Shown here one piece after another: positions 4,422-42,600 of a stretch of 64,000 bases of DNA. This DNA comes from a virus. Lineage: Duplodnaviria > Caudoviricetes. The notes below the pieces were generated by a model. It was not told the DNA's origin, ran no database searches, and saw only the letters and a program-made list of their open reading frames with translations. Numbering within the stretch: position 1 is the first letter of the stretch; the number at the start of each line of letters is the position of its first letter. Made by a program: the position numbers and the translations under genes. The stretch is from positions 1,835-65,834 of IMG/VR virus record IMGVR_UViG_3300047297_000146; one strand, written 5' to 3'.

Positions 4422-6620
4422 CTATACTCCTTCATTTTGACTTATGCCAGATTCAGGGCCTAAATCAGTCATCGCATACTGTTTACCAATATCAACCATC
4501 GCATAGTCTTCATTAGACTGTGCCTCAAGTCCAGCCTTTGCGGTTGCAAGCGCAATGTCTGCCTCAAGTTTTGCGGCTATCTCAGCCTTTATCTTTTCAA
4601 TTTCAACTTGCGCCTTAGCCTGTTCAATTTGCATATTGAACTGCATGACCTGTGCTTGTTGTCCTTGTTGTGCAGCTTGTGCTTCTTGCTGCATCATCAT
4701 TTGTTGTTGTTGTGCTTCAGCCATTTTGGCTTCTTGCTCATCAAGGTGATCAAGAATCTTAGTTGTTTCTGGCATGTTGACAAGTTGTACAAATAACCTG
4801 TTGGTAGCAGGATCCATTGGGTCACCAAAAACACCCATCTGTCGTAATGTGGCGTACTTGTTTAATCTCTGGTCTGGTCCTTCGTCCATACTAGATCCCG
4901 GCACATATACAATCCTATACCGCCCACCATTGCGCAGAGCATCAAAACGCATAACGCCTTGTTGAATTTGGTCTCTAGGTAACATTCCTCCTTCAATGTT
5001 TCCAACAAAGGGGACAATTGCAAACTGTTCAATTAAACTTACTTCCCACTCTTTAATACATGCATTACTAATTTCAATGTCAGCTCTTACATAAGAGTGC
5101 TGGGTGTTGTCAGCTTTCTGCAGCAACCTTACAGACTCGGCTGGCGTACCGGCTTGAGCCATACCTTGACTGACGTCGTGCAACCCTGCAACATCCATCA
5201 TGTCCTTTTCAATCATTTGCAATAACGGGAATAGGTCAGCACCTATACCTGGTGCTCGTTGCACAGCAGGTGGCCTACTACCACGGTCGTAATAAACCTT
5301 ACGGTAGATTCTATTTTTATCTTCAACCGTATCGCTTTCTTTGTCGTATGCATCAGCACCAACAGAAGACAAACGCTCAATCAGTAAGTAGTCTTTCTGT
5401 GCTTCAAACTGCTCAAGTAATCTACTGTAAATACGATTGTATGTACTCTGTAATGACACTAAGTCAAATCCAAGACTGTATCCATATGGAGTACCGGCGC
5501 GTGGTTGCCATCGCAAAGGAATAAATGGAAATGAATCCTTTTTGTTGTATGGCCATGGACCAGCATAAAGTAATGTTGATTGTGTAGACACAATGTATCT
5601 ACCGTTTTGATACAGCTTAGATGGCTTCTCCCAGTACTCGTAAACTACGGCTGCATTCTTGCGTTTCTCATTAGAGTTTGACGTAGACGATGAAGGTGGA
5701 ACCCAACCTCGTCCGCCAGCATTAGCACCATCAATGTACGCATCTACATATCCTGAGTGCTGACCAGTTAGTGCGTCTGCCTCAACCTTTTTACCAATCT
5801 CGCCGTATGAATCCACGAACCACGATAATGGCTTAATCATTGCATGAATCATCCAGCGGATGTCATCATCACGTTTGGCAGATGGGTCAATGTACACATC
5901 GAATGCTGGCAGGATCTGTTCTACAACATCTCCAACGCGCATCTCCATATGCCCAACAACACTCTGACCATCAACATCCATCTGTGGGACAACTTGTGTT
6001 TTGCGACTATCCCAATACACTTTTAAAAACGATGTACCACAAACACATGCCCAGCGTACACGCTCTTTAGTTTGCGTTTCTCTGCCAAATTTACGGTTGT
6101 AGTGCTTGGCAATAAAGTTTGCCTCGTCGCTGGCAGCTCTGTCTTGTGGACTATCAGATAATGGGACAGACGTTGCGTCTGGAGCACACTGCGTCAACTT
6201 GCCGACTACGCCGTCAATTAGTGGTCGTAACTTATTGACAGTCATATAGCGGTTTGGTTCGTTTGGGTTTTGAAGACGAATAATGTTACGGCCTTGACTT
6301 CCAATGCGTAACCACTGCCTACCCTCAAAGAATGCTGTTGCTAATGCCCATTCAAGCTCCATATCGGTTCTTGCTTTTTGTGCACTATCGAACTGTTGCT
6401 GAACAAACTTAGTGACCTTACGGGCTTCTTCTGGTTCGTCAAGTTCGTTAACTTTCCAGTCTTTAGGTGTTACATCTAGTTCTAAATTATCTTTATCGTC
6501 AAGTTGTGGATCATCCAGCGGAGTGGATCCAACCGTACCTGTATTATTCTTTTTTTCAAATGCAGAGATGCGTGGTTTACCATTTCTTACTGCCGCTGAA
6601 AGTTTACTGATGTCGTACAT
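4422..6620 (-). CDS. Portal protein (P22-like)
   Basis: 732 aa after terminase; FFEGRQW, TVNKLRPLI and CGTSFLKVYWD motifs; Q-rich C-terminal coiled coil. Confidence 0.9.
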   Translation of the reverse strand: MYDISKLSAAVRNGKPRISAFEKKNNTGTVGSTPLDDPQLDDKDNLELDVTPKDWKVNELDEPEEARKVTKFVQQQFDSAQKARTDMELEWALATAFFEGRQWLRIGSQGRNIIRLQNPNEPNRYMTVNKLRPLIDGVVGKLTQCAPDATSVPLSDSPQDRAASDEANFIAKHYNRKFGRETQTKERVRWACVCGTSFLKVYWDSRKTQVVPQMDVDGQSVVGHMEMRVGDVVEQILPAFDVYIDPSAKRDDDIRWMIHAMIKPLSWFVDSYGEIGKKVEADALTGQHSGYVDAYIDGANAGGRGWVPPSSSTSNSNEKRKNAAVVYEYWEKPSKLYQNGRYIVSTQSTLLYAGPWPYNKKDSFPFIPLRWQPRAGTPYGYSLGFDLVSLQSTYNRIYSRLLEQFEAQKDYLLIERLSSVGADAYDKESDTVEDKNRIYRKVYYDRGSRPPAVQRAPGIGADLFPLLQMIEKDMMDVAGLHDVSQGMAQAGTPAESVRLLQKADNTQHSYVRADIEISNACIKEWEVSLIEQFAIVPFVGNIEGGMLPRDQIQQGVMRFDALRNGGRYRIVYVPGSSMDEGPDQRLNKYATLRQMGVFGDPMDPATNRLFVQLVNMPETTKILDHLDEQEAKMAEAQQQQMMMQQEAQAAQQGQQAQVMQFNMQIEQAKAQVEIEKIKAEIAAKLEADIALATAKAGLEAQSNEDYAMVDIGKQYAMTDLGPESGISQNEGV

Positions 6621-6760
6621 TATAACCAGCCCTCGCGATCATATATTTCCTTTGAGTATATCTTTATGTTCTTTATGTCACTCAAGATACGATAAGACAT
6701 GACACTTGCAATGCATGTAGTTAAAGTGCAGATAAAACTTAATATTTCAATTACAACCAT
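6620..6760 (-). CDS. Small membrane protein (46 aa, not in ORF track)
   Basis: MVVIEILSFICTLTTCIASVMSYRILSDIKNIKIYSKEIYDREGWL fills the terminase-portal gap, with TAATG coupling to the portal start. Confidence 0.55.
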   Translation of the reverse strand: MVVIEILSFICTLTTCIASVMSYRILSDIKNIKIYSKEIYDREGWL

Positions 6761-8499
6761 TCATCTAGGTTCCTATTCTTTAACCACTCTGGCTTATTGT
6801 TAGCATTACGTTTTTCACGCTCATCTACTTCTGGACACCTAACGGGATGTTCTCGCCACATTAGCCCATAACGCAAACTATCTATAGCGTGATCATTTCG
6901 AGTACCTGAGTCAATTTCATCAGCATCTTTAGTGTGCGTCATTGTGTCAGATAACTGCTTGATAATATTTGGACAACCATTGCGGTTAATTACAAACTTT
7001 GGCTTGACATTACCATCAACCATTTCAGATGCCATAAGCCATTCTTTGACACGATTCCATCCTGCTTTACGATCCTTAACTGCTCGTACGGCTGGCAGAC
7101 CGCGCTCCCACCAGATCTCTACTGGATACTCACCTACTCGCTGATCAACCTTTTCAGGTGGAAACGTATTAGCCCAGTCAAAAGCAATAGCCTCTAGTTT
7201 AGTATTGTATGCACCATGCTCGTTAGCTTTATTTTTCGGTTCAGCTATTTTGTACTTTTTAAGAAGTTCAATTACACCGTCAACTTGCATGCTGCTGGTT
7301 TTGCCAGCCTCGTACCATTCATGTAAGACATACACATTCTCACGCTCATCACTTGCGTAGAGGATAAAACATGCTGGTGCTCCAGTGCCAAAGTCATGAC
7401 TTGCCCAGAATCTCCACCATGGTTGCACATCAATATGATCTACTACGTGCCAACCATTTCCATTACTGTCAATTGGTTTAAACTGCGGGAAAAATAAACC
7501 ACCTACACCAACATCGTGCTGGCACTCTCGTAAGAATGATATTAAACCAAAGTCGTCAATTTCTTTTTGGCATACCGCTAAGTTTTTGTGTTCCCATGCA
7601 GCACGTCCAGAGGTTATCTTCCAACCCATACGTCCATCATCTTTTTCAACAGGTTCATATATCAGGTCGTAGATTGCAGGAATAATTGGTGACTGTATAC
7701 GGTCTTGCAACATATCAAGCTCACCAGATAAAACACGGGACATAACGCTGTTTGCATGAATTCTATTCTGTACAAACACAATAGCACAGTCAACGCTTTT
7801 AGCCGGAAGAATGGTAGCCGTAATGGTTCGGATCTTTTTTTCAACAGCATTAACGGAGTCATCTAATTCGTCGATGTCGTCCAAGATAATCATGTCTGGT
7901 CGTAGGTGATCTAACTTAACACCACGAGCACCTGTGTCCAAACCAAATGCTAGAACATTAAAACCATTAGCCGTGCGTAGTTTTTGTGCATTCCACCCAC
8001 GAGAGAAACCATATTGGTTAACAGCTCGCTCAATGCCACAGCGCTCCATTACTCCAGCAATATCACTAACGTGCCTATTAGCAGCGTCTTGTGTTGCACA
8101 AACATATAAAAGAAAACGCCTTGACGCCTTTACTGCTAATCTACTGGATATTAATTCCATGGTGGTTGATTTGCCACCACCACGAAACCAACACTCAATC
8201 AAAGCAGGTGGAGAATTACCATTCTCTATACTCTCAGCCCAGTTCCATGCGCGTAAGTGATGGTCTCCCATTTTTGATGGTGCTGATTGTGGAGCGTAGA
8301 CGCGCAACCAATCCATGAACGGCATATCGTGCCCTTGTATAGGAAAGGCTGTACCTCCGTCAAACGCACCAGTGTCTGCGTACTCGTTTAAGTCAGCTGT
8401 TACAGCTTCCAATAAGGCAACTGATAAATCCTTGCCTGGGCGGACAAACTTCTTAAAGCCACGAGGAGTAGCGCGAGTATTAACTAATAACTTCTGCAT
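6751..8499 (-). CDS. terL: Terminase large subunit
   Basis: Walker A FRGGGKST, Walker B IILDD, nuclease motifs HDFG and DHAIDSLRY. Confidence 0.95.
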   Translation of the reverse strand: MQKLLVNTRATPRGFKKFVRPGKDLSVALLEAVTADLNEYADTGAFDGGTAFPIQGHDMPFMDWLRVYAPQSAPSKMGDHHLRAWNWAESIENGNSPPALIECWFRGGGKSTTMELISSRLAVKASRRFLLYVCATQDAANRHVSDIAGVMERCGIERAVNQYGFSRGWNAQKLRTANGFNVLAFGLDTGARGVKLDHLRPDMIILDDIDELDDSVNAVEKKIRTITATILPAKSVDCAIVFVQNRIHANSVMSRVLSGELDMLQDRIQSPIIPAIYDLIYEPVEKDDGRMGWKITSGRAAWEHKNLAVCQKEIDDFGLISFLRECQHDVGVGGLFFPQFKPIDSNGNGWHVVDHIDVQPWWRFWASHDFGTGAPACFILYASDERENVYVLHEWYEAGKTSSMQVDGVIELLKKYKIAEPKNKANEHGAYNTKLEAIAFDWANTFPPEKVDQRVGEYPVEIWWERGLPAVRAVKDRKAGWNRVKEWLMASEMVDGNVKPKFVINRNGCPNIIKQLSDTMTHTKDADEIDSGTRNDHAIDSLRYGLMWREHPVRCPEVDEREKRNANNKPEWLKNRNLDEWL

Positions 8500-9220: not shown

Positions 9221-9834
9221 TTACCGTATTTTGGTAATTTTGTCTTTAGCCTTACTAGCTGCGAGACCAGCCTTGTCTCCATATTTAGCAGCGTTATTCA
9301 ATAGGAGGGTTTGTGGATGCGTTTTGGAAACAAAACCTGCAAAATCTGTTATCTTTTTATCAACTGTGTTTACGGTTTTTTGTGTAGCGCTACCTTTATA
9401 CCAGCTTGGAGCTTTAGGTAATCGCCCACCAATGTTAATCGTATTATCTGCTAAGTCGTAAAGCATTGGGTTTACAAAGTCATCCATTGCCATGTCAGTT
9501 GCAAAATTGATTCCAGCTTTAAGAGGATTAATTACTTTTGGCAAAAATCCTAAAGAACTAGTACCTCCAGTTTCTGGTATTAATGCAGCAGATGCAGCGT
9601 TGACTGCCATCTCTTCTAGTGCATCTTTACCAAAGTTTGCAAGCTCAACTAACCCAGTTCCTACCCCGGCATTAATCTTATTTCGTATTCCCGGCTTAGA
9701 AAATATATCTGCTTGATCTGGTGCTCTATTAAAGTACCAAGATGCACCTTCAGATATTCCACTGAGTAAGCGCTTTGGATTTGCTTTTACATCGTTAACT
9801 TTTGACATAATATATTTAGTAAAATCATTTTCCA
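9221..9834 (-). CDS. Hypothetical protein
   Basis: ORF; start at MENDFTK preferred because of GGAGG upstream. Confidence 0.55.
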
Positions 9835-12800
9835 TTTTTCTTAGCCTCCTCAGCACTGAATCTACGTATTGCTGCTTTACCATATTCTTTTAAAGCTAAA
9901 AGAAGTACAGCGGCAAAACTCATTTTCTTGGCTTTTCCAATTAATCCGCCAAACCCCTTAGCTTCCGCGTCGGCAATGATTTTGTTTTGAACTGCTTCAG
10001 GAATCTTAATACCCTCAACGTCTGGTGTGTTATCTTTACCTACCGACTTTGCGCTAATAGAAGTGTATACTTCTCCTTCACGAAAATACCTCTTGCTTGC
10101 TCGCACACGTGAAACCAATTGTGTTACTAACTCACGTACATTCTTGGTATCAATCTTGCCTTCATTGACTTGTTTTACAAAATCTAAATAATCTCGTTTT
10201 CCAATCCAGAATTGCTTACCTTCATATTCAAATCCAAGCCGATTACCAGCTTGTACTGGAGCTGATTCAAATGTTAGCCGTTTTACTATGGGTTCTTTTT
10301 TAATTAATTTTTGATCAATTAACTCAGCATCCATTCCAGCTGGTAACATTCGCGATTGTAAAAATGCACCTCTGTTGTATAACGGCACTTCAATAACTTT
10401 TCCACCGATGCGGTATGTTTCTGATGTAGTAATATCTTTTGTTGTTGTTTTTCCGTCATCACCAGTTGTTGTAACTGTTGCCCCTAAAACTGTATATCCG
10501 TCTTTTAATTTTTTAGATTTTCCATCAGCCTCAGTGGTAAACGTGTTAGCTGTTTGATTTTTTAATATCTTTCCATTAGGGCCTTTGACCTCATAACGAT
10601 ATTCATTTTGGTTTTCTGTTAATATGTCAAGATACTCAACTGTTGTATTGTTAATTTTCCATTGTAATGCGTCTGCGTAATTTGGCTTGTTCGGCATCCT
10701 GTTTTCTCTTACCCATTGCGGTGCCTTAATTGTAAACTTTGTTGCAGCCGGTACAACGTGTCCACCCGGTGTCAAAGTAAGGGCACGGCTGTCTTTTAGT
10801 TGTTTGTTAATTTCTTGCCGTGACGGTCCTGACGGTCCTGACTTCTTATCAAGTTCATTTGGGACTACTTCTGACCAAAGTGGATAATTCCTTAATACAT
10901 ATATTCGTGCTTCATCAGGTAAACCATAAGTATATTCAACCCATTCTTTGGCATTCATGGATTCCCATTTACTATCAATAGATTTCCAGAGATCGCCAAG
11001 TTTTACTTTTGTAGCATCGACATCTAAGCCAATCGCTTGCGCAATCTCAACCTCTCGCGCTAATCGTTTTTTATCATTAGCTGTTAGCTTTTTGTTCCAC
11101 TGCTGGAAAGCTTTTCGTTGATCTTCGGGACTCATGTATACCGTAGGTAAGTTAGTCCGTTCTATCTTCTTAGCCGACTCTCCAAATAAAACTTGAAACG
11201 GGACTTTATTACTAGCAAGATTTGCTTGATTGTAAGTTCTTGATTCCTTAGTGTTTAGTCTGTCAATTTTATTTAATTCAAATAATGGAGACGCACCTAA
11301 CTGTGGAGCAACCGATTTAAGATGCTTATTTAAAACAAGAGTAAGCGTGTCTAGTCGTTGACTTTCATTGTCTGTTAGATCATTATCTAACGCTTTATTT
11401 TTTAATGCCTTATATTGCGAATAAACAGTCTCAAGCGGTAAATCTTTTCTTGTTCGCCAATCACGTGCAACTGATTGTGCAGCTTTTATTGCTGGATCAT
11501 TTGAATTAAATTCTAAAAGCAACCCAGATAATTCACCTTCTGATGTTGCTCTTTTTAACTTTTCCGCAAGACCAGATAACTTTTTAGCTTCGCCTATCTT
11601 AGCAACGCGACCAGTATCTCCTTGTTTTAAAGCATCTACTTCTTTCTGTAATTTGTCCTGTAGTGGTCGTAACTTTTGAAAAACACTATTGCGTAACGCT
11701 GCTACATCATCCTTTTGTGTTGTCAGTGAAACTTTGCCCTTGGCATCGAGTATTGAAATTACTTCACCAACTGCATCACTAGGCAACGTCTTAGGGATTT
11801 TATTACCGTCTGCGTCCGTTACTTCTTTGACGTCATATCCAAACTTTTGTAAGAACGCAGCTTTTTCATTGCGTATCTTGACAGTGTCTTCAGCAGACAT
11901 TTCAGTTGTATTGAAAAACTTAGATATGTCATCTTGAATTTCTTGTGGCGTACGTATACGACCAGATCCTTTGCCAGCAAAAGCATCAATTCGATCTGAC
12001 ATGCGACTACGTAATGTGTCAGAAAATGTCAGTAATGCCTTACTGGTTTTATTGCCCTCAATTAACTTTTTGAGATACTCCTCAGGATTAGCTCGACCAG
12101 AATCTTTTAATCCTTTCAACACTTCAGCTTTTAAAGCTACAACGTTTTGTTTGTTTGTTTCGTTAAGGTTTTCATTAGATGTTAGATCAAGTAAATCGCG
12201 CACTGCGCTAGATAGTTTCGTCGCTCCTCTATTTACTCTAGTGCCTCTGGTAATACCACCATATGTATTACCTTTAGTTGTACTATCAAGAACTTTTAAT
12301 GCTGAATTTAAATCTACTTCAAAATTCTTTGCTTTGACAATTGCTGTTTCTAAACCAGTTTCAATTTTTTGTTTACGCAGTGGGCGCTGGCTATTATTAC
12401 CTTGCTTTACATACTCGGTAGCCACAACTGATACGGCTGTAAATTGACCTGTCTTTGCATCTTTTTTCCAATCAAACGTAAACTTGACATTCTCGTTTAA
12501 TTTATGACCAATAGTTTTTCCTTTGTCATCTTTTATTTCTACTAAATAACTAGGTGCTCTGGCATTGTCATTTACTAATTCGTAGTCTGGATTAATTACG
12601 GTCCAGTTAACGCCTTGTGCGCTTGCGAGAAAACTATTAAATCCTAATCGTGTAGGGCGACCAACACCAATAGTATTTGTTTCACCTTCTCGGTAACGAG
12701 TTAATCCCTGCTCGTAATAAAATTGCTTATCACTTAAAGATAGGCTGTCAAATCCTTTATTACGAACTTGCTCTCTTAGAGTTCTATAACGTTCGCCGAT

Positions 12801-15800
12801 TTTGTCGTCAGCATTTTGTACTGCTCTACGGTCATCTAGAATCTGACTATGAGATTCTTCAGTTGGGCTATTATATGCAAGGTCATATATACGGCTTTGT
12901 AGTAATGATAGTGCATCAGTTCCTTTTTGCTGCGCCCTTACCTTCTTGCGTTCTAATGCAGCAATTGCTTGATCAATTTTTCTTAAACCCTCTGGTGTTT
13001 GTCCAGATTTTGTTTTTTGTGTTTGTAACTTAGCAATGTCGGCATCAGTATTTTTTACTACAGCTGCTTGAATATCCGCATCTCGTTTTGCAGCATCAAG
13101 TGATTTACTAGTATTTTCATACCAGCGTTTAGCAAATTCAACGTAATCGTAATTTCCATTTTTTTCAGCACTTGCAATTTTTGCCGACAGCACTGTTTCA
13201 ATTTGTTTTGTGTCACCAGCTTTTTCACTACCACCAATGTCACCACCAAGGGCTTCAACAGCTTTATTGTAGATTTCTTTTCCGGAATCAACTTGCGCTC
13301 TGTTTGTAGATTCAGATGGCCTAAGGCGTTCCGAAACACTAGTATCTGCTGGTGCTGCATATCCAGCAGCAATACTGGTCATTGATGTACGATACTTTTT
13401 AAATACGTTATCAATGTCTGCGTCAGATACCGTGCCTTTCATCCATTCAGTTGTTGCGGATTCTACTATTTGCTCTCTAATGCTAGATACCATAGTGTCA
13501 AACTTTACTTTGTCTTCTGGCTTAATATCAAACTTAGTTAATGACGATTTGATCGAGTCATCAAACGCATTTAATACCTGTGTCTTAAAGTTACCTTTTG
13601 GAGCTTCTCCGCCAGCTACTTGTTCTCCAATACTGTTTGTTACGCCAAGTATGGATTTTTTTGCGTCGCCAAATATTGTGTTTACAATATCCATACTTCG
13701 CTGCACTCTATCAAGCGCTGTTCTTTCAGTCTTGCTTGACCGACCACCTACGGCACCCGTACCTCCGGGTATTGCATCTGCATTTTGCATTACTGTTCCA
13801 GCAGAAGTGGTAGGTATGTATCTTGTTCCACCTTCAGGTGTGACTTCCATGGTGGATGCCATGGTCCTGAATCTTGCCGGAGTTCCTATTTGCAAAGACT
13901 TTAATATCTTGGCTTTTAAATCTGTCTTGTTGTAATCAGATGCCTTGATGCCAAACATCGATAAAAAGACGTCATCAGTTTTTTTATCTACAGCTGTTGC
14001 TTCCTCTAACCGTGAAGCATACAAACCAACTAACGATGACATCTGCTGGGGAGTCATCTTTATGTTTCCGTTGTATGGAACTTTATCTACTGCACTTTTA
14101 ATTAAATTTTGCAGATCAGTACGGTATCTAGAGTTTTTACCAGCGTAATCAAACATGCCTTGCAAGACTTGTATGCGACTGATCTGATCTGACCGTACTG
14201 GTAATAATGGTTGGTTAAAATCATTCTCACCTGTAGGTAATTTAGCAAATGATAAACCAGACTGCTCAACTGCCGTACCTTCTAAGTTACGTGCTTGTAC
14301 AGCAATATCATTAAGTACGCGCTTCTTGCTCATCCATGAAGACTGCTGTGCGCCACCGGGTATTACTGCATCAACAGCTTTAAAGGTATCTGTAATTAAA
14401 CTGTATGTACCTTTTGATGTACCACCTGTGGTGACACCACCTGTTTTTCCAGCGCGTACAGAACTAATGTCTGAAGTAATCTTAGGCACAATATCAGATT
14501 CAATATCGTAACTATTCATGCCAGCAGTTACGAAATCATTGACATCATCAATGCTTTGGAATAACTTGCGTCCGACTTGTTCTAGTTGTGCTTCGCTAAG
14601 ATTTAAACCTGAGGCCATTGCACCAGCAAGTTCTGGGCGAGATGCAATACGTCCACTGTTTGCACCAGTAATACCTTGTGGTGCTTGTGTTTGACTTCCA
14701 GATACGTTGGAGCTTATGTCATACATGTAAGGATCTTCCTTACCTGCACGTGTCATATCCCCTACGAGGGTGCCCTCCTTCTGACCGTATAAAGCCTTTA
14801 CACCACCGGGGGTTAATGCGGAATACACATCGTCGTTATCAGGATTATTTGGGTCAAAACGTAAAGCTGCTTCATCACTCAATGATGGATCAATATCCAT
14901 CGCTCCAGATACGTATCGCTTCATGCGTGTCTGGCCAAAGAAATCTTTTAACTCTTGTGGAGTAACTTGAGTAGTTGGATCAGCACCAGCTTGCCCACCC
15001 ATTCGCTTTACTAAGTCTTGGGCTTTTTTTGTATTAAATAAACCTTGACCATCAAACTGCTCGTAGGCATCATCAATTAACGCTTGACCTTGTGGCGAAT
15101 CCATAAACATTTGGACTTGCCGATCTTTATTGCCCTCAATAGTTGGTTTTGATAAATCGCCATATGCCGATTCAAATATGTTTAAAGTCTTGCGTGAGTT
15201 ATTTGCTGTAGGAGATCCAGATTGCGCATCTGTTCTAAGTTCCGTAAATCGTCCTTGAACGTAATCGTATAGAACACCACCAATAAGTTTTTTACGTACA
15301 GCTTCTGGACTTGCATCTGCCTTTTCTTGATCAAGTTCAACAAGTGATTTATTTGTAACGTATGGCTTGATAACTTTTGATGCTTGTTGAGCTAGATAGG
15401 TTTGCGTTTTAGGATTTCTAAAATCTTCATCTGTATAGTCAGCAAGTACTTCTAGATAATCTTTTGCACCAGTAACACCAGCATTATCACCCTTCGCGTA
15501 GGCAGTAGTTAAATACATAACGCCATTTGCGTATGCATCTGCCATCTTTCGCTTAGTTGGTTCGCCAGTGTTATATAACTCTGCAGTTCTATTAATTAAC
15601 TGTAAGAACTTGTCATCACCAATGACGTCTGTCCTGTTTGTTCCAGCAGTTTGTTTTGATGCGCCAGTAGCCTTACCAAGCCACGACTGCATCTTAGTAA
15701 TCAGATCAGCACCAGATGCTAGTTGACCAGTACTTTGAGAACGCAAAAACATGTCTAATCCAGCTGCATGTTTTCCCGCACTAGCATCATCTATTCCACC

Positions 15801-16142
15801 TACATCAATGCGAGTACTAAGACCTGCACCTGATGCATTAGGCATGTCTACTATTCCCTTAGATAGACGAGCCATAGGGTCATAATCAAACCCACCCATA
15901 GGAGGTAAACCCGGAAGACTAGGCAATCCGGGCATACCCTGTGGCATTGCTGGCGCTGGCTGTGTAGTCTGTGGCTGTTGACTCGCCATTGGCGGTATTG
16001 ATGGAAGAGACGGTGGTTGTACTTGTTGCCCCTGTGTTGCAGGCACGGGACTACCGCCAGCAGGTGTTGCTGGTTGCTCTTTATCTTTATCCGACATAGG
16101 AGCCGAATTACCCATAATCAAACTAGACAGTAATGACGCCAT
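9825..16142 (-). CDS. Giant hypothetical protein, 2105 aa (possible internal virion protein)
   Basis: Uninterrupted ORF with GGAGGT RBS and Pro/Gln-rich N-terminus; no catalytic motif recognised. Confidence 0.7.
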   Translation of the reverse strand: MASLLSSLIMGNSAPMSDKDKEQPATPAGGSPVPATQGQQVQPPSLPSIPPMASQQPQTTQPAPAMPQGMPGLPSLPGLPPMGGFDYDPMARLSKGIVDMPNASGAGLSTRIDVGGIDDASAGKHAAGLDMFLRSQSTGQLASGADLITKMQSWLGKATGASKQTAGTNRTDVIGDDKFLQLINRTAELYNTGEPTKRKMADAYANGVMYLTTAYAKGDNAGVTGAKDYLEVLADYTDEDFRNPKTQTYLAQQASKVIKPYVTNKSLVELDQEKADASPEAVRKKLIGGVLYDYVQGRFTELRTDAQSGSPTANNSRKTLNIFESAYGDLSKPTIEGNKDRQVQMFMDSPQGQALIDDAYEQFDGQGLFNTKKAQDLVKRMGGQAGADPTTQVTPQELKDFFGQTRMKRYVSGAMDIDPSLSDEAALRFDPNNPDNDDVYSALTPGGVKALYGQKEGTLVGDMTRAGKEDPYMYDISSNVSGSQTQAPQGITGANSGRIASRPELAGAMASGLNLSEAQLEQVGRKLFQSIDDVNDFVTAGMNSYDIESDIVPKITSDISSVRAGKTGGVTTGGTSKGTYSLITDTFKAVDAVIPGGAQQSSWMSKKRVLNDIAVQARNLEGTAVEQSGLSFAKLPTGENDFNQPLLPVRSDQISRIQVLQGMFDYAGKNSRYRTDLQNLIKSAVDKVPYNGNIKMTPQQMSSLVGLYASRLEEATAVDKKTDDVFLSMFGIKASDYNKTDLKAKILKSLQIGTPARFRTMASTMEVTPEGGTRYIPTTSAGTVMQNADAIPGGTGAVGGRSSKTERTALDRVQRSMDIVNTIFGDAKKSILGVTNSIGEQVAGGEAPKGNFKTQVLNAFDDSIKSSLTKFDIKPEDKVKFDTMVSSIREQIVESATTEWMKGTVSDADIDNVFKKYRTSMTSIAAGYAAPADTSVSERLRPSESTNRAQVDSGKEIYNKAVEALGGDIGGSEKAGDTKQIETVLSAKIASAEKNGNYDYVEFAKRWYENTSKSLDAAKRDADIQAAVVKNTDADIAKLQTQKTKSGQTPEGLRKIDQAIAALERKKVRAQQKGTDALSLLQSRIYDLAYNSPTEESHSQILDDRRAVQNADDKIGERYRTLREQVRNKGFDSLSLSDKQFYYEQGLTRYREGETNTIGVGRPTRLGFNSFLASAQGVNWTVINPDYELVNDNARAPSYLVEIKDDKGKTIGHKLNENVKFTFDWKKDAKTGQFTAVSVVATEYVKQGNNSQRPLRKQKIETGLETAIVKAKNFEVDLNSALKVLDSTTKGNTYGGITRGTRVNRGATKLSSAVRDLLDLTSNENLNETNKQNVVALKAEVLKGLKDSGRANPEEYLKKLIEGNKTSKALLTFSDTLRSRMSDRIDAFAGKGSGRIRTPQEIQDDISKFFNTTEMSAEDTVKIRNEKAAFLQKFGYDVKEVTDADGNKIPKTLPSDAVGEVISILDAKGKVSLTTQKDDVAALRNSVFQKLRPLQDKLQKEVDALKQGDTGRVAKIGEAKKLSGLAEKLKRATSEGELSGLLLEFNSNDPAIKAAQSVARDWRTRKDLPLETVYSQYKALKNKALDNDLTDNESQRLDTLTLVLNKHLKSVAPQLGASPLFELNKIDRLNTKESRTYNQANLASNKVPFQVLFGESAKKIERTNLPTVYMSPEDQRKAFQQWNKKLTANDKKRLAREVEIAQAIGLDVDATKVKLGDLWKSIDSKWESMNAKEWVEYTYGLPDEARIYVLRNYPLWSEVVPNELDKKSGPSGPSRQEINKQLKDSRALTLTPGGHVVPAATKFTIKAPQWVRENRMPNKPNYADALQWKINNTTVEYLDILTENQNEYRYEVKGPNGKILKNQTANTFTTEADGKSKKLKDGYTVLGATVTTTGDDGKTTTKDITTSETYRIGGKVIEVPLYNRGAFLQSRMLPAGMDAELIDQKLIKKEPIVKRLTFESAPVQAGNRLGFEYEGKQFWIGKRDYLDFVKQVNEGKIDTKNVRELVTQLVSRVRASKRYFREGEVYTSISAKSVGKDNTPDVEGIKIPEAVQNKIIADAEAKGFGGLIGKAKKMSFAAVLLLALKEYGKAAIRRFSAEEAKKNGK

Positions 16143-18866: not shown

Positions 18867-19498
18867 TACATGTGATTCTCAGTAAATGCACTTGTCGTAT
18901 TAGGAAGAACCTTGCACAGCACGTTCCAGCAGTCAGTAGCAATTTCACGATGTTCTTGCTGCGTGTGCGTGTTCATGCGTACTCGGCAGTAATGTAGCCA
19001 GTCACGCACGTTTCCCTTCATATACAGGCGTGTGCCGACGCACAAGGGCAATACCATTCGTGCTGACTCTAGCGCTACACCAGATTTGACAAGATCATCG
19101 TAGGCCCGGATAGCAACTAGTACTGGAGCTAACGCTTTGTTGTCCATTTGATATTGCGTTTCAGGATCATCAAACATAACGCTACCCTGCCTATTAGTAC
19201 TACCTTTACGGCGCATAACAGGTAAGTCTAACTCAATCTTGCTTGGGTTTGCGTAACGCTGGCTAAACTCTTGGAAGTGAAAGCTCCTGTGACGCAGGAT
19301 CTGTGCTGCAATAGCCCTTGATGTGTAGATCTCCATGACCACATCTACCATCTCAAACACAGACCAATGACCTTCACGCATGCAATACTTCAGAAGCCTA
19401 ACGTATTCAGGGTTATCTTGGTTATCAGATGAGACACGTGCAAGATGAATCATAAATTCTTCTGCATCAGGTTGTACGTACTTAAGTGTGGCTGCCAT
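18866..19498 (-). CDS. thyX: Flavin-dependent thymidylate synthase
   Basis: GHWSVFE, RHRSFHFQEFSQRY (RHRx7S), ARMVLP and QQEHR motifs. Confidence 0.97.
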   Translation of the reverse strand: MAATLKYVQPDAEEFMIHLARVSSDNQDNPEYVRLLKYCMREGHWSVFEMVDVVMEIYTSRAIAAQILRHRSFHFQEFSQRYANPSKIELDLPVMRRKGSTNRQGSVMFDDPETQYQMDNKALAPVLVAIRAYDDLVKSGVALESARMVLPLCVGTRLYMKGNVRDWLHYCRVRMNTHTQQEHREIATDCWNVLCKVLPNTTSAFTENHM

Positions 19499-19510
19499 TT
19501 TCTCCTCCAA

Positions 19511-19591
19511 TCCCCAGTACGGGACTCGAACCTGTACTCTTTGCAGAAACGGATTTTAAGTCCGTCGTGTCTACCATTCCACCAACTGGGG
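19511..19591 (-). tRNA. tRNA-Leu(UAA)
   Basis: Acceptor CCCCAGT/ACTGGGG plus discriminator A; anticodon arm ACGGA-CTTAAAA-TCCGT; long variable arm; GGTTCGAGTCC with one T-stem mismatch; CCA not encoded. Confidence 0.9.
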
Positions 19592-19702
19592 TTGTGTCTT
19601 ATTATACCGTAAGTATATGTGGTACTATGGTTGTGAAACGCGATGATATCTTAAAAGTCCGCCCATCATGCCACCATAGCGACAGTTAGGACGAGCGAAT
19701 CT

Positions 19703-19731
19703 AAAGGCCCCTTCACAGAGGGGCCTTTTTT
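19703..19731 (+). terminator. Intrinsic terminator (possibly bidirectional)
   Basis: AAAGGCCCCT-loop-AGGGGCCTTTTTT. Confidence 0.75.
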
Positions 19732-19733
19732 AT

Positions 19734-19792
19734 TACGTGCGAATACGTGCGAAATACGTGCGATTATCGATAACCTTGCGTTTTACGTGCGA
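19734..19792. repeat. Four copies of TACGTGCGA
   Basis: At 19734, 19744, 19755 and 19784. Confidence 0.8.
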
Positions 19793-20150
19793 TTGTTTTT
19801 GGTTGTGCTACAAACTGTTTTCCTGCCTTATTACCGGCAGCTTTAGCTCGGTTAGTGGCAGCTTTTTCACCCGATGACAGAGCACCCCACGCCTTGTCTG
19901 GCAAATACCGCTTTTTACCTTCACTAGGTGTATTATCGCTAGTGCGCCACTTCTGATCTGTCCACTTTGCTAGGCTATTATCGCTTGATTTAGGGCCTTT
20001 ATAGCCACCGCCTGACTTCTTGTACTGTTGTGTTGCAAGTTGCGCCTTACGGGCAGACCATTCACCGGGATCACCACCCTTTGTGCCAGACTTAACCCTA
20101 GAAACAATAGCTTTCCACTTACTTGGATCTGTCTTCTCGGCTGATGACAT
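19764..20150 (-). CDS. DUF5872-like basic phage protein
   Basis: GGDPGEWSARKAQL, SLAKWTDQKWRT and RYLP.KAW motifs. Confidence 0.75.
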   Translation of the reverse strand: MSSAEKTDPSKWKAIVSRVKSGTKGGDPGEWSARKAQLATQQYKKSGGGYKGPKSSDNSLAKWTDQKWRTSDNTPSEGKKRYLPDKAWGALSSGEKAATNRAKAAGNKAGKQFVAQPKTIARKTQGYR

Positions 20151-20385
20151 CGTCTTTATCCTTTTCTGTTACTTCTTTGATCTCGATATTTGGCAACTTA
20201 CTGATCTCCCACATTGCGTAGTACTTATCAAAGCCTTTTTCGTCTATTGACCTAATATCTACATCCATTGTGACTAGCCATTTCTTGAACTTGCGGTAGT
20301 CAAAATACCCAGCAACGTAGTCAACAATGTAGTATGCCAGCGATGTTACTGCAATGCCTAAGATAAACGCTTGTAATCCAGTCAT
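20119..20385 (-). CDS. Small membrane protein
   Basis: N-terminal TM helix; probably leaderless (TGCTATACT-6nt-ATG). Confidence 0.6.
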   Translation of the reverse strand: MTGLQAFILGIAVTSLAYYIVDYVAGYFDYRKFKKWLVTMDVDIRSIDEKGFDKYYAMWEISKLPNIEIKEVTEKDKDDVISREDRSK

Positions 20386-20402
20386 GACTGCAGTATAGCA
20401 AT

Positions 20403-20518
20403 AAAAAACCACCCGCAGTAGAGGAGGTTACTACGGGTGGCCTATCGCATATTAGAGAGAAAGAAAAAGAAAGGCTCTAATATGCAATATCCCCAGTGCG
20501 TTTACATGCATGGGAGAT
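20403..20518 (-). ncRNA. Three-hairpin structured RNA/3'UTR ending in a terminator, with anti-SD-like loops
   Basis: 11-bp stem with loop CCUUUCUUUUUCUUUCU; 12-bp terminator stem with loop ACCUCCUC followed by U6. Confidence 0.5.
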
Positions 20519-20521
20519 CGG

Positions 20522-20803
20522 TTATTTAAATTTTAACAACTTTGAGTACGAAGTACCAGACATTGCTTGTGCTGCTTGCTTATTACTAATCTTGTTCATT
20601 ACAACTTTATTAGGTACAGCGGATTGAGATGGTGTAGTTCGATCCATCACGTGCTGTGTTAAGGCATGAGACTTTGCTTGAGCACCCATATCTTCAACGC
20701 GTTTGTCGCGATCTTCCTTAAGGCCCGTTCTAATATACTCAGCATTACGGCGGTGCCTATTCTGAAGTGGTGGAGTGTTGTACTGTTTACCTTCATCGCG
20801 CAT
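20522..20803 (-). CDS. Hypothetical protein
   Basis: 93-aa ORF with GAGGT RBS. Confidence 0.55.
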   Translation of the reverse strand: MRDEGKQYNTPPLQNRHRRNAEYIRTGLKEDRDKRVEDMGAQAKSHALTQHVMDRTTPSQSAVPNKVVMNKISNKQAAQAMSGTSYSKLLKFK

Positions 20804-20826
20804 ATCTGTACCTCAGAGCGATTATA

Positions 20827-20898
20827 CTCCTACTGCTGGGATCGAACCAGCGACCGTCCGGTTAACAGCCGGATGCTCTACCGCTAAGCTAAGTAGGA
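20827..20898 (-). tRNA. tRNA-Asn(GUU)
   Basis: Acceptor TCCTACT/AGTAGGA plus discriminator G; anticodon arm TCCGG-CTGTTAA-CCGGA; GGTTCGATCCC; CCA not encoded. Confidence 0.93.
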
Positions 20899-20916
20899 AT
20901 GTACCGTAAGTATATC

Positions 20917-21552
20917 CTACTTGGGTGCTTTGCCAGTAGGTTTCTGTTTGAAGTCAGCAATCTTATTGATGTCTAACATAGCACCACCACCAATACTTGG
21001 GCGACTATTTGGAGCTGGCTTATCAGCTGTAATACCAAGAAAGTTGCTAACACCTTTTACTGAAAACGGAGTAGCTGGCTTAGGTGTTTCTTTAGCAGCT
21101 GGCTTTATAGGTACCCGTGATTCTGTTGGCCTAGGTGCTTTCAGTTGTTCCACAGGTGGTTTATTTACGGCTGGTTTAGGTGCAGTACCACCCATGAACG
21201 AGTCGCGTTCTACTGGCTTTGGCGCAGCCTTAGGTGTCTCCTTAGCAGTTGGCTTAGGTGCTGGTTTGGGTGTAGGCTTAGCACCAAACTCTTTGTCGTA
21301 ATCAACTGGCATATTCTTGGCTGCTTTTTCGCGATAACGCTGTACTTTAGCATCACCTAAGCCCTCATTTGCACGTAAGTTTTTTTGGTCTTGTATGTTG
21401 TTTACAGAGTTAAGGAAAGCATCACGTTGATCTGCAGGAATACTATCTTTTAGGCGTTCATATTCTCTATGCGCAGCCCATTTACCTTTACGGACAGCAA
21501 CATCAAATAAATATCCAGCCGCTTCTTTACCTGATTTAAATTGATTAGCCAT
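20917..21552 (-). CDS. Pro/Lys-rich hypothetical protein
   Basis: PKP/AKETPK repeats; start MANQF preceded by TGCTATACT-7nt (leaderless). Confidence 0.6.
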   Translation of the reverse strand: MANQFKSGKEAAGYLFDVAVRKGKWAAHREYERLKDSIPADQRDAFLNSVNNIQDQKNLRANEGLGDAKVQRYREKAAKNMPVDYDKEFGAKPTPKPAPKPTAKETPKAAPKPVERDSFMGGTAPKPAVNKPPVEQLKAPRPTESRVPIKPAAKETPKPATPFSVKGVSNFLGITADKPAPNSRPSIGGGAMLDINKIADFKQKPTGKAPK

Positions 21553-21846
21553 AATCGAAAGTATAGCATGGTACAGAGTGTAGCAAAACCGTATAGTCAC
21601 TGCGTTCTAAAAGGATCTTAATGTTTTTTCTACGGGGAGAAACAGTTTCTCCGGTGGGAGAAATAGATAGAGGATAGCTGAGAATATATGTTTTGGAGTC
21701 ACTACTGTGCCGAGCCAACCGGGGCACCCCCTTGCCATGCCGGGGTCTAACCCCCGGTACCCCACCCCACGTGACTGTGCCCTAAATCCCGGTCTACATA
21801 CATGGTGTGGACGCCCTTCGGGGTCGTCCGGTTTACATTCCCTTTA

Positions 21847-24423: not shown

Positions 24424-24630
24424 ATGAAAAACACAAGCGAGATTCTCGCACTTCAGACAGAAATCAGTGAACTATCACGTGGCATGTACAAAACATGGTC
24501 ACGCACGGGTAACACACTACGTGCCAATGAGGAAACCCTCAAGAGTCTAACAAGGAAGCTAGACCAAATGATTCGTGATGCACACAATGCTGACGAAAAA
24601 GCAGCACGTAGCAGGAGGTTAGGTTACTAA
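24424..24630 (+). CDS. Early hypothetical coiled-coil protein
   Basis: AAAGGA RBS; 68 aa. Confidence 0.65.
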   Translation: MKNTSEILALQTEISELSRGMYKTWSRTGNTLRANEETLKSLTRKLDQMIRDAHNADEKAARSRRLGY

Positions 24631-38895: not shown

Positions 38896-39675
38896 CAATG
38901 TCACTGTTTTGTTTACATCGTTGATTGTAATATAACATCCCAACCAAAGAGATAAGTCCCTGACACCAATGTAACGCTTGCCATCTCGCGTAATCAAAGG
39001 TGCAGGGATGATCTCACTACCCCACATAGCGCCATCGTCTGTCGCTTTCAAATTAACAAGCACCTCATGTGGTGTAAAAAACATGTTCAAAGCATTACGC
39101 AATGGAGCGTACACACGACTTGCATGGTTAATACATTCAACCTGACGATTCTTTACTTTTAAAACCCACTCTACATCCTGCTGTATCATTTTTGTCCAAC
39201 GAATAAACTTAAGACTATCAGCAGTTCTATTTGCATAGACATTAGGACGCCGAGCAACTAAGTATCCATTTCGACTACCGTTGTTATTACTGTTGCCTTC
39301 TATGCTTCCAATAACCCCATCAGCACCTTCAGTGTCAACAATGCCAATGTGATATGCGTCATCACCACGATGGCACACAAACAAGTCTCCGGCAGCCGGA
39401 GATGATGTCATTAGCTGTCGTTTTCTTGCCCAGCTATAAACCACGTCACAATCAGCAGTAATAGGCACAGGCCAGTCAATATTATGAGCATCTTGAAACT
39501 CTTTGCCGATAGCAGAAACAAATGAGCAACACCAAAAGCTTCCTAATGGAACGTTGCTTTGACGATTCCATTTATCAATTAAATCCCCACGATTACTACC
39601 AAATGGCTCTTCCGACACACCAACATATTTATTAGCAAGAGTCAAAAACTCTTTTGCTAAATCATTACTATTCAT
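38884..39675 (-). CDS. Endolysin: CHAP domain plus putative cell-surface-binding domain
   Basis: WCCSFV, HIGIV and IEGNS (CHAP); C-terminal YAPLR and YIGVRDL repeats resemble the copper-amine-oxidase N-terminal domain. Confidence 0.8.
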   Translation of the reverse strand: MNSNDLAKEFLTLANKYVGVSEEPFGSNRGDLIDKWNRQSNVPLGSFWCCSFVSAIGKEFQDAHNIDWPVPITADCDVVYSWARKRQLMTSSPAAGDLFVCHRGDDAYHIGIVDTEGADGVIGSIEGNSNNNGSRNGYLVARRPNVYANRTADSLKFIRWTKMIQQDVEWVLKVKNRQVECINHASRVYAPLRNALNMFFTPHEVLVNLKATDDGAMWGSEIIPAPLITRDGKRYIGVRDLSLWLGCYITINDVNKTVTLSKP

Positions 39676-42600
39676 TATTGCCTCCTCCGTTATATTGCAT
39701 TAGTGCTCTGGTCACATTGTTCAATGGTAACCGTATCTTCTGCTTCTCTTTTTCTCTAGCTTGAGATTCTGATGCTGCAATTCCAAACGTGGCGTTACTT
39801 GGATCTTTAACATCCCAGCCAGTAAATATGTTTTGAGGTTCTTTGCGCATCATTTCAAAAATATTTGGATAGTCGTACCAGTCTTTAATCATGTACGCAA
39901 AACGTCCAAATGTCATACTACTGTTACCTACTTGGACTGGCTCCCTGTTAACCATCCTGTATCCCTTAGGCTCATACATAACGTTAAACCCTAATAGCTT
40001 TGGAACAGTAGCCTTCCACCATAATTCATTAGCTTGTTCCTTACTTACTCGTAATTGATTAGGAACATTACCAGAACGAATCATTTGATCTATAGACATA
40101 TTCTGCTTAGCTGCTTCAGAGAACATAGCTAACTTTAATAAGTCTTCGTAATAAGATCTCTGATGAGCAAGCGTCATTGTGTCCATTGCTAATCGACTTT
40201 GCTGTGGAAATAAATACCCAGTCGGATGGAAATAAAATGGTGCTCTTACATCATTTTCTACAGCAACTTTTAATCCAGAATCACGTTCAAATGTAGGCAA
40301 ACCCTTGAATGACTTGCCAGTTAAATTACTAATGATGAATTGACCACCATTGTGGATTTTGTTTTTAATTAACTGTTTTGCTAATCCATTAAGAGCAGCT
40401 TCAGTTTTCTCAATTGGTCCGTAGTTTTCTTGAGAGAAAGCTTCAGCAAGAGGTTTTATATTTTGAGCAAGACGCCCAAGGACTGGTAACTGTACAGTCC
40501 AGTTGTCGTTTAATTCAACATAACCTAGCCTCTTACTCATAACATCTAGCCAACCAGTCTTATCTTCTTCTTCATCTGGTCGTTCTCGTTGATGACGATA
40601 GAAGTTAGCTGTTGCAGTTATCGCACCAACAATAGCCCACGTCGCTAACGATTTGCCAATATCTGCCTTCCTTTGCCGAGTAGCCCACTCTGTACCGTAT
40701 TGCTCCATACGTAAGTCACTCTCAATATCAAAGACATCTCCCTTTAACCACCAAGGTCCTTTATCTGTAGCAACTCTAGCCCATTCATTAATAGACTTTT
40801 TAGCAGCAGTTCCCGGTCCGCTAAATCCGTAGTACTGATTAAAATTCCTTGTGTATGACGGTGCAGTCATAAAGTAATTAAACACACTGGAAAGAGATCT
40901 CCAAATAGGAGCCTGTGTTTTACTCTTAGCGTGAGATCCAATTCCAATTTCTTTAGCCACTAACGATATACGAGCCTTAATATCTCGATCAATTTCATAG
41001 TCTTTTAAATCTACATTGTTAGGATCTAACTGACGTTCTCGTGCTCGTTTGACAGTAAACAATGCCTGTTGAAGCATAGATAAATCAAGAATCAACTGAC
41101 GAGTCATTTCAGCTCTGCGCCATAGTGGCACAGTAGCTCCAAGGACACCAGCTGTAAATACGTTTTCACGTTCACTTTCCCATGGAGTATCTATGATTGA
41201 CTTATATCGTCCCGGAGATGCAAGCATGTTTGCCTTTGATCGTCTATACCAGTCAGAGTAACTACTCTGCATGTAATACGTGTCAATCAACTCAGACATA
41301 CTAATAGGTGTACCCATGCTGTGTCTTGCATTGAATCGATCAACTGTATGGTTCATGATGAAATCGTAATAGCGAGAGTCTAAATTCATAGCGCTATCAG
41401 TCCATTGATTACCACCCGCTAACCTTCTTTGTTGACGAGAGCCATGCCACAGACTACCAAGTACTAAGCCAAGGTCTGCGCTAGAAAATGTAACAAGGGA
41501 TGGAGCGGATAAAGCAAGAGCTTTAAAGGTTTGATAAGGAGCACGTGCTAGTAATGAACCAAGCTGAATTGCAAATGATGATAAGTCAAGACCTAACACA
41601 CCTCGGAATATCTGCTGCAATGGACTCAGTACATATTTATTTACGTTGTATGCTGCCTCATTTACCTTTGGTGACATTGAGAAATAAACATCGTTATCTT
41701 TACCGTCTAATGTAATTGCTTCACCATCTTTGACGGAAGTCTCATAAGGAGTTCCCTTCAATGGGTCAAGAACTAACTTGTCATATATGTCACTTGAAAC
41801 TTGCAATACAAGGTTATCTTTTCCACCAGACTGAAGCATGCCACCTTTTGTCTTAGGGTCCCTATGATAAGTAACTGTTTCAGGTACACGATATGCTCGT
41901 TCCTTAGCGTCTATAGCAAGATCATCGAGTGCACCCTTAGTTGATTCAACGTATGGGTCTTCTGAATCATTGACGTGTAATGCGCTTTGCTTACGTAATT
42001 CGGGAATGTTATCCGGATTACCATCAAAGTAACGTGGACTACTTGAGAACCAAGTGCCAGTGCTTGCATCCTGCATTAAGTCAGATTCATTGTTGAACAA
42101 CATCTTGTGCCCAACCTTATTGAACTCAGCATGCTTTGGATTATCAGTATTCCTGTCTTGCGCTAACAATAACTTAGCAACATGATATTCCTCTTGCAAC
42201 ATACGATTGTCAATAATGCCCTGACGCTTTTCTTCAACTACAGTCATAGCACTTGAACGCTCAAATGGATTCAAGACCATGTCCATGAGACCAATAGGCA
42301 TCTGAGTACGATAGTTATCTGCATTCTGCCAGTTGTCACTTGTATCTACAAAAGACCATTTAGCTTCTTTGCTATCATACTCACCCTTAATAACATGCAT
42401 GCCGGTGTTTGGAGTTGGCACATCAGGATCAAATATTGGTGCATTTAATTCCGATATCTCAGCAACAGATATCGGCAACATAAAGTAAATGGGTTCACCA
42501 GATAGGTATCCGTAACTAGCTGCGCGTTCACCAGCTAATGCAACAAGTGCATCATTAACCTTTTCGACTCCATCAAATCCAAATAATTGTTTAGCATTAA

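Follow-up and report, generated by a model that had tools for sequence, protein, structure and literature searches.

A modular, terminator-ended structured RNA with conserved pyrimidine-rich loops in related uncultivated phages

Introduction

Several bacterial small RNAs (sRNAs) are derived from the 3′ untranslated regions (3′UTRs) of messages or from tRNA spacers, among them CpxQ, SroC, and the 3′ETS-leuZ sponge. Others pair with Shine-Dalgarno (SD) sequences through C/U-rich loops, as do the hairpins of S. aureus RNAIII, RsaE/RoxS, and cyanobacterial Yfr1 with its unpaired ACUCCUCACAC. Phages encode antisense or immunity RNAs of their own, such as c4 of P1/P7 and CI of P4, and the reshaping of host translation start choice by phages is known mainly from proteins such as T4 RegB. 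Here we describe an RNA element encoded on the minus strand, at positions 20403–20518, of a 64,000-nucleotide stretch of DNA from a virus of the Caudoviricetes (record IMGVR_UViG_3300047297_000146). The stretch, hereafter called the window, comprises bases 1835–65834 of the 65,834-base record, which is rated complete; coordinates below are window positions.

These 116 nt are the short form of an RNA that is modular and structured, ends in a terminator, and is conserved in a group of uncultivated, related phages of ~62–67 kb. It resembles the 3′UTR- and tRNA-spacer-derived sRNAs in that a stop codon or a tRNA 3′ end lies ahead of it and its own terminator closes it, and in having conserved unpaired segments ahead of the terminator hairpin and U tail. 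An earlier note, made from the window alone, had proposed a three-hairpin RNA whose loops mimic the anti-SD tail of 16S rRNA, repressing SD-led messages and sparing nearby leaderless genes. That interpretation is partly supported by the analysis below: it is unproven as a whole and in places weakened.

Results

A Conserved Structured RNA Encoded on the Minus Strand

When the minus strand from 20518 to 20403 was folded with RNAfold, precisely three hairpins were obtained, with a minimum free energy of −50.3 kcal/mol; none of 200 dinucleotide shuffles folded as well (−23.2 ± 3.4; z = −8.07). Fold and sequence agree with the hairpins described in the earlier note, including the perfect 11-bp stem, the 17-nt loop, and the terminator loop. 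The element is placed between the stop codon of a 93-aa open reading frame (ORF) and its own terminator, which confirms the 3′UTR position that had been proposed. Its parts are:

20489–20518, minus strand: hairpin 1, with a variable outer stem, a 2×2 internal loop CA/CY, a 3-bp helix UGC/GCA, and an 8-nt loop AUGUAAAC; the apical motif is CCAUGCAUGUAAACGCAC.
20444–20488, minus strand: hairpin 2, with a 14-bp stem including one U·G pair and a 17-nt loop CCUUUCUUUUUCUUUCU at 20474–20458 that contains UCUUUC.
20403–20443, minus strand: hairpin 3, an intrinsic terminator, with a stem at 20443–20406 of 15 pairs (7 G-C) and an 8-nt loop ACCUCCUC at 20428–20421.

The stem of hairpin 2 includes 11 consecutive Watson-Crick pairs, GCAUAUUAGAG/CUCUAAUAUGC. 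Directly 3′ of hairpin 3 a run of U, TTTTTTATT, extends to 20403, which gives this hairpin the features of an intrinsic terminator, and it was picked up independently by a terminator scan.

Relatives of the element were collected by four routes. Searches with the flanking proteins led to related virus loci, five and two in number; a DNA pattern of the hairpin-1 apex retrieved 46 virus stretches; a pattern of hairpin 1 plus TCTTTC retrieved 11 metagenome stretches, a set biased for the loop; and a pattern derived from the 3′ part of long relatives, which made no use of hairpin 1 or 2, retrieved 36 virus stretches. A search with the terminator pattern of the short variant gave one further virus contig only, which was already in the collected set. 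When 21 distinct hairpin 1+2 sequences were aligned with MAFFT and folded with RNAalifold, 22 pairs were obtained, 16 of them with compensatory changes; a covariance model made from this alignment recovered 34 full-length copies (32 distinct). In the alignment of these 34 sequences, which was fitted to the covariance model itself, 99.3% of cells were paired, compared with 36–54% when the partners were slid by 1–3 columns. Double changes were found in 17 of the 22 pairs, including all 15 pairs of hairpin 2, and none of 500 shuffles reached the observed values of pairing and covariation. The frequent G·U and U·G pairs in the hairpin 1+2 alignment and the U-run after the terminator stem establish the minus strand as the RNA strand. 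We conclude that the element near certainly represents a functional structured RNA family.

The family had no counterpart in Rfam 15, a release that includes C4, Yfr1, HDV-like, hammerhead, twister, pistol, hatchet, GOLLD, and ROOL RNAs. Only two tRNAs pass the gathering threshold in the window; when 651 nt surrounding the element were scanned with E allowed up to 10, only sub-threshold noise and no ribozyme family came up, and eight related or hairpin-1-bearing loci gave tRNAs only at E up to 1. Full-text literature searches turned up no account of the hairpin-1 motif and none of an anti-SD mimic encoded by a phage. IMG/VR has also been the source of a catalogue that lists 10,006 structured RNA candidates from viruses (PMC10690425), in which the family may already be present without a name.

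Architecture of the Family

The window's family comprises 40 distinct elements. Hairpin 1 begins 1–3 nt after the 3′ end of tRNA-Asn in 23 of them and follows something else in the other 17. The window belongs to the latter, with the 93-aa ORF separating tRNA-Asn from the element. The neighboring features in the window are:

20826–20899, minus strand: tRNA-Asn(GTT), upstream of the element in the same orientation; CCA is not encoded.
20522–20803, minus strand: 93-aa ORF of no known family with stop codon TAA at 20524–20522, of which the element is the 3′UTR; 46–75% identity in five related loci.
20392–20400, minus strand: extended −10-like sequence TGCTATACT, 6 nt 5′ of the ATG of the next gene.
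20119–20385, minus strand: 88-aa gene 3′ of the element, with the ATG at 20385 as start; two loci carry a relative that is 67% identical.

The short form is represented by four elements (the window, L005, L085, and L090) and the long form by 29. In the long form, hairpin 2, which 5 of these elements lack, precedes a hairpin with a GNRA cap (GCCACC-GAGA-GGUGAGC), a covarying helix that encloses a hairpin with a CUCC loop, and a conserved single-stranded stretch CCGACA...ACUCUGCAAACA, after which comes a separate terminator; a conserved internal loop GAAAG/CCGACA is also present. When the 3′ domains were aligned together, differences among the sub-variants left RNAalifold with the GNRA hairpin and the terminator alone.

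Hairpins 1 and 2 make up the 5′ module; the 3′ module is a CUCC-displaying hairpin that either leads into an intrinsic terminator or itself serves as one. The element is preceded either directly by tRNA-Asn or by a small ORF and is followed by a −10-type promoter. The gene on its 3′ side differs among relatives (at least four different proteins), and the element with its terminator-promoter junction is constant; the site looks like a hotspot of gene-cassette exchange. In several relatives that have no ORF between hairpin 2 and the 3′ domain, including the window (AUG CGA UAG), a vestigial AUG with two to three codons is seen at the site where an ORF resembling helix-turn-helix (HTH) proteins starts in other loci (see Discussion).

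Conserved C/U-Rich Loops

UCUUUC was kept in all 34 hairpin-2 loops, and the loop had played no part in the collection of 26 of these 34 copies. Most often the loop reads UCCUUACUCUUUCUC; that of the window is the most U-rich variant. CUCC, the complement of the SD core GGAG, was unpaired in the predicted apical loop of 32 of the 33 distinct long-variant 3′ domains, on flanking stems that differ among relatives (GGCCAGAA, GUCUAGGA, GUCUAGAG, AACAGAA, and others). In all four short variants the terminator loop carries AACCUCCUC, with CCUCC present. Together with the compensatory changes throughout the hairpin-2 stem, these counts bear out loop conservation with stem covariation in relatives, which the earlier note had named beforehand as a check of its proposal. 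As judged from these alignments, the loops are under tighter constraint than the stems. The loops of the window contain ACCUCCU and CCUUUCU, which we take to match common bacterial 16S tails. The element has a position before its own terminator and a putative conserved, unpaired seed with covarying stems, as a 3′UTR- or tRNA-linked sRNA would.

Hairpin 1 Is a Motif of Its Own

Hairpin 1 presents a constant apex, the near-invariant motif CCAUGCAUGNAAACGCAC, on a variable and covarying outer stem. Its core consists of a closing C-G pair, the 2×2 internal loop CA/CY, the UGC/GCA helix, and an 8-nt loop AUGNAAAC, which fits what we take to be the T-loop pattern U-G-N-A-A. In a set of 26 sequences, where the invariance of the core is partly due to the method of collection, pair 15–36 is C-G in 20 and G-C in 6. 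Copies found through the 3′ domain, and so independently of hairpin 1, differ at few positions (CAUGUAUG, CAUGCACG, CAUGUAAG, and GCUC); the first three of these sequences weaken the idea of a kissing dimer formed via the palindrome CAUGCAUG. The same fold was seen in 55 distinct instances, and the motif occurs once in the window, even when three mismatches are allowed. Hairpin 1, on which the earlier note made no comment, is the most conserved part of the element and is unrelated to anti-SD mimicry.

The motif recurs in unrelated phage contigs, at loci L013, L019, L026, L035, L045, L049, L014, L015, L027, L033, L038, L041, L044, and L046. The major head gene adjoins it in 4 of the 13 neighborhoods checked, ending 27–34 nt upstream (L035, L049, and L044) or starting 154 nt downstream (L027). 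Other neighbors are the large terminase after the motif (L041) and a methyltransferase before it (L013); 7 of the 13 loci showed no annotated neighbor. In several loci, our class C, the motif stands directly 5′ of terminators. In L024, L028, L030, and L031 it forms one arm of a ~250-nt conserved region with several covarying hairpins, which spans from ~160 nt before the motif to 120 nt after it and has a second hairpin with a UAUAAACG loop. This region had no Rfam match at E up to 1 when scanned in L028 and L031, and it may be a separate large phage RNA.

In bacterial genomes (596 billion bases) there were 26 exact matches to the hairpin-1 motif, none of them in a hairpin context, against ~70 expected by chance by our arithmetic (17 fixed bases, both strands). 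With matches at or below chance and no hairpin, we rejected the motif as evidence of prophages or of a host.

Ribosome-Binding Regions and Predicted Leaderless Starts

The purine-rich leaders pointed out in the earlier note do exist: CAGAAAGAAACACAATTATG precedes the ATG at 27239 and CGAAAGAAATAACATG the ATG at 35798. In a duplex scan of the window, self-pairing aside, both loops formed their strongest duplexes with SD regions, the top ones being −18.4 kcal/mol at the start of a thymidylate-synthase-like gene (19486–19515) and −18.3 kcal/mol at 24596–24625. The proposed repression of SD-led mRNAs finds this much support in the window; the energies, and the want of longer targets, are taken up in the Discussion.

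The "nearby leaderless genes" that were to be spared amount, in the window, to one strict case, the ATG at 20385 with TGCTATACT 6 nt ahead of it, and one near case, the ATG at 21552. Since its promoter lies directly before the ATG, the gene at 20385 is predicted to be leaderless. A second exact TGCTATACT is found at 21560–21568 on the minus strand, 7 nt before the ATG at 21552, at the head of a minus-strand gene block. The 227-aa ORF listed from the GTG at 21600 probably starts at this ATG, with little or no leader. TATAAT or TATACT was seen by eye 5–6 nt before the ATG of the post-element gene in over half of the relatives inspected. Leaderless starts appear to be a recurring neighbor of the element, which does not imply a functional link.

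The Source Record

The window contains a portal gene (4422–6620), a large-terminase gene (6751–8499), and, at ~17–22 kb, a block of small genes with two tRNAs. Two large minus-strand ORFs, of 4264 aa (39668–52462) and 2105 aa (9825–16142), had no PHROG match at E up to 1e-5. When the large terminase was searched by tblastn, matches came from Rhizobium, Sinorhizobium, Roseobacter, and Bacillus phages, the best of them only 26–30% identical; we therefore infer no host, and the whole phage is remote from isolates. No rRNA was found in the virus record. A search for RNA sequencing runs covering 19500–21700 listed none, which speaks neither for nor against expression. A blastn search of the element region against phage GenBank sequences gave tRNA-Asn matches and one weak gene match (Roseobacter phage CRP-9), and nothing else.

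A 14-mer, ATATACTTACGGTA, which contains TATACT, is present on the minus strand at 20902–20915 and 19605–19618, just 5′ of each of the two tRNAs, tRNA-Asn and tRNA-Leu, whose units seem to share it as a promoter or processing signal. A perfect palindromic hairpin, AAAGGCCCCTTCACAGAGGGGCCTTT, with T and A runs on either side, lies at 19703–19728, can be read as a terminator on both strands, and ends a two-gene unit that begins after the three-hairpin element.

Discussion

We tentatively favor, at a probability of roughly 0.35, a trans-acting RNA whose unpaired CUCC and UCUUUC loops would pair with purine-rich ribosome-binding regions. The reading is based on the 3′UTR or tRNA-trailer position of the element, its own terminator, and its conserved loops. 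The RNA would be cut free from the tRNA-Asn or ORF transcript, with tRNA 3′ processing or 3′UTR cleavage setting the 5′ end and the terminator of the element the 3′ end. Its action in trans would come from the unpaired pyrimidine loops (hairpin 3, CUCC; hairpin 2, UCUUUC), which would pair with GGAG and GAAAGA in the ribosome-binding regions of host and/or some phage mRNAs and so lower their translation. Leaderless messages, such as that of the gene directly downstream, would escape repression. Hairpin 1 would be a separate module, most likely a 5′-end or host-factor hairpin, outside the pairing surface. A bolder version, in our view quite improbable, has an abundant RNA derived from the tRNA-Asn transcript mask SDs with its 16S-3′-tail-like loops, or soak up S1, and tilt translation to leaderless phage messages; hairpin 1 would then be an undescribed, widely shared phage motif that docks on a universal host component or the tRNA elbow, or that is catalytic.

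A good deal weighs against SD pairing in trans. The duplex energies are no higher than those of ordinary SD pairing and would be given by any C/U-rich loop. In five relatives that are 97–100% complete, complements of the hairpin-2 loop with at most one mismatch were found only on its own antisense strand, and complements with three mismatches were no commoner than for a reversed control pattern. By a crude census, GGAG or GAGG lies upstream of 36 of the 67 ORFs of at least 80 aa, and any SD-like word upstream of 52; the phage seems mostly to use SD-led initiation, so a global SD blocker would hit the phage itself. The likeness to the 16S tail is also narrower than the earlier note held. The base before CUCC varies among the 33 long-variant 3′ domains (CCUCC in 19, ACUCC in 7, UCUCC in 6, and none in 1), and L101 has a GAAA loop at the usual CUCC site; on these counts the conserved unit is CUCC, not the full 16S-like word. 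By eye, the invariant GAAAG might pair with the UCUUUC loop within the same molecule, and the GNRA hairpin, internal loop, and enclosing helix of the long variants are traits of folded or protein-bound RNAs.

The element is also modular, and no indivisible three-hairpin unit, so that the claim of a single RNA made of three hairpins does not hold for the family. Hairpin 2 is absent from 5 of the 40 elements, and in 7 of the 40 no long-type 3′ domain is found within 110 nt of hairpin 2. In L034, L087, L091, L092, and L105 an HTH-like ORF of ~90 aa, whose ATG sits in the 3′ strand of hairpin 2, separates hairpin 2 from the 3′ domain, and L050 and L086 have a different 3′ part. In unrelated phage contigs the hairpin-1 motif occurs as a lone, long, G+C-rich hairpin or within other stems, where the C/U loops are absent.

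The same features can be read as those of a protein-binding structured RNA, a ribonucleoprotein, decoy, or antitermination signal in which proteins would bind the loops and the apex of hairpin 1. We consider this less likely than not, but a close rival of the trans-acting reading. Host proteins that bind pyrimidines, for instance ribosomal protein S1 or cold-shock proteins, might be the binders, as might the proteins of a nut-like NusB/NusE-type site combined with hairpin 1; CUCUUU resembles the boxA core. Protein binding would fit the apex sequence that is kept as the outer stem covaries (pair 15–36, C-G in 20 and G-C in 6), the recurrence of the hairpin-1 fold in 55 instances across unrelated phages, and the elaborate long variants with their GNRA hairpin, conserved internal loop, and enclosing helix. 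It would also fit the conservation of loop positions that are not SD-complementary, such as UAC in CCUUACUCUUUC, and the lack of an extended RNA target in the phage genomes of the five relatives; the element is, moreover, always 5′ of a terminator, as an antitermination signal would be. However, no protein partner is identifiable, the boxA likeness comes down to six bases (CUCUUU/UUCUUU, shared with the core) with the rest of boxA absent, the downstream genes have their own promoter right after the terminator, and the window variant keeps the loops without the elaborate 3′ domain. Another close rival, unlikely but favored by position, is a purely cis-acting 3′-end module, in which a terminator and exonuclease-blocking or processing hairpins would keep the following promoter apart from the tRNA-Asn/ORF unit. 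All relatives do have the element between a transcription unit and the promoter that follows, and hairpin 3 is a canonical intrinsic terminator; elsewhere, the placing of hairpin 1 27–34 nt after the major head gene (L035, L049, and L044), or just before the terminators of class C, fits a role in 3′ ends or stability of abundant RNAs. Yet terminators and exonuclease blocks need no conserved loops, and here the loops are more conserved than the stems. The 5′ module can, besides, serve as the 5′UTR of an ORF and the 3′ module as its 3′UTR, which indicates that the pieces are kept for more than insulation.

By analogy with the theta ribozymes beside phage tRNAs, hairpin 1, alone or with its neighbors, might be a processing element or small ribozyme with its cleavage site at the 3′ end of the tRNA or behind capsid messages; we hold this to be very unlikely. 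Hairpin 1 starts 1–3 nt after the discriminator of tRNA-Asn in 23 of the 40 elements, this tRNA has no encoded CCA, the core is near-invariant, like that of catalytic RNAs, and tRNA-adjacent ribozymes in phages have a precedent (PMC10879173). Against catalysis stand the lack of a match to Rfam ribozyme families with E values allowed as high as 10, a size (~30 nt, two short helices) below that of known self-cleavers, and the occurrence of 17 of the 40 elements, and of all instances in classes B–D, away from a tRNA. An HDV-like fold of hairpin 1 was considered and dropped, as inspection revealed no P2 strand between P1 and P3 and Rfam gave no match. It is hardly conceivable that the signal is not RNA at all, the plus strand encoding a small protein or the DNA itself being the site. 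The plus strand of the window does have a strong SD-like GAGGAGG before a GTG-initiated frame of ~30 codons, but on that strand the G·U pairs become A·C mismatches, and stops in all three other short variants (L005, L085, and L090) led us to reject an antisense small ORF. For a DNA-level site, the exact hairpin-1 motif in bacterial genomes gave chance-level, non-hairpin matches only. An N4-type DNA hairpin promoter, an idea raised by the 4264-aa ORF, was likewise set aside: this ORF has no PHROG match, and the stems and loops are far longer than those of the N4 promoters.

If the loops do pair with ribosome-binding sites, the favored trans-acting RNA would be a case of a phage-encoded RNA altering the choice of messages on which the host ribosome can initiate. 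Whatever the mechanism, the 40 distinct elements constitute a new covariation-supported family of phage RNAs with three separable modules and no Rfam entry. The short hairpin motif, which likewise has no Rfam entry, is found in phages that are otherwise unrelated, where a tRNA or the major head gene is often its neighbor.

Comparison with Known Systems

Two publications offer points of comparison. HDV-like theta ribozymes adjoin phage tRNAs (PMC10879173), and what they share with our element is a start directly after a phage tRNA gene, a positional precedent only; unlike them, the element has no HDV-like fold or Rfam ribozyme match and is also found after ORFs. The catalogue of viral RNA candidates (PMC10690425) has the same source, IMG/VR, and the same type of evidence, covariation, and many of its candidates contain terminators or are adjacent to tRNAs.

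Compared with the 3′UTR- and tRNA-spacer-derived sRNAs, the element is phage-encoded, has its candidate seeds in apical loops, carries an extra conserved 5′ hairpin, and shows no relation in sequence. With RNAIII, RsaE/RoxS, and Yfr1 it shares unpaired, GGAG-complementary pyrimidine motifs on several hairpins of one RNA; its motif is CUCC/UCUUUC, whereas theirs is UCCC, and no Rfam match links them. The nearest Rfam match to an sRNA of this kind, Yfr10, scored 18.8 bits against a threshold of 43 (E 4.3) and is noise. The c4 and CI RNAs have defined, cis-linked targets in the same phage, whereas the element has no extended complement in the five near-complete relatives and does not match the C4 family. 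As with c4 and CI, it would be a phage-encoded small RNA, cut from a longer transcript, with loops that pair with ribosome-binding regions. In working principle, its nearest analogues would be sRNAs derived from 3′UTRs and tRNA spacers, the C/U-loop sRNAs known from Gram-positive bacteria together with Yfr1, and the c4 and CI RNAs of phages.
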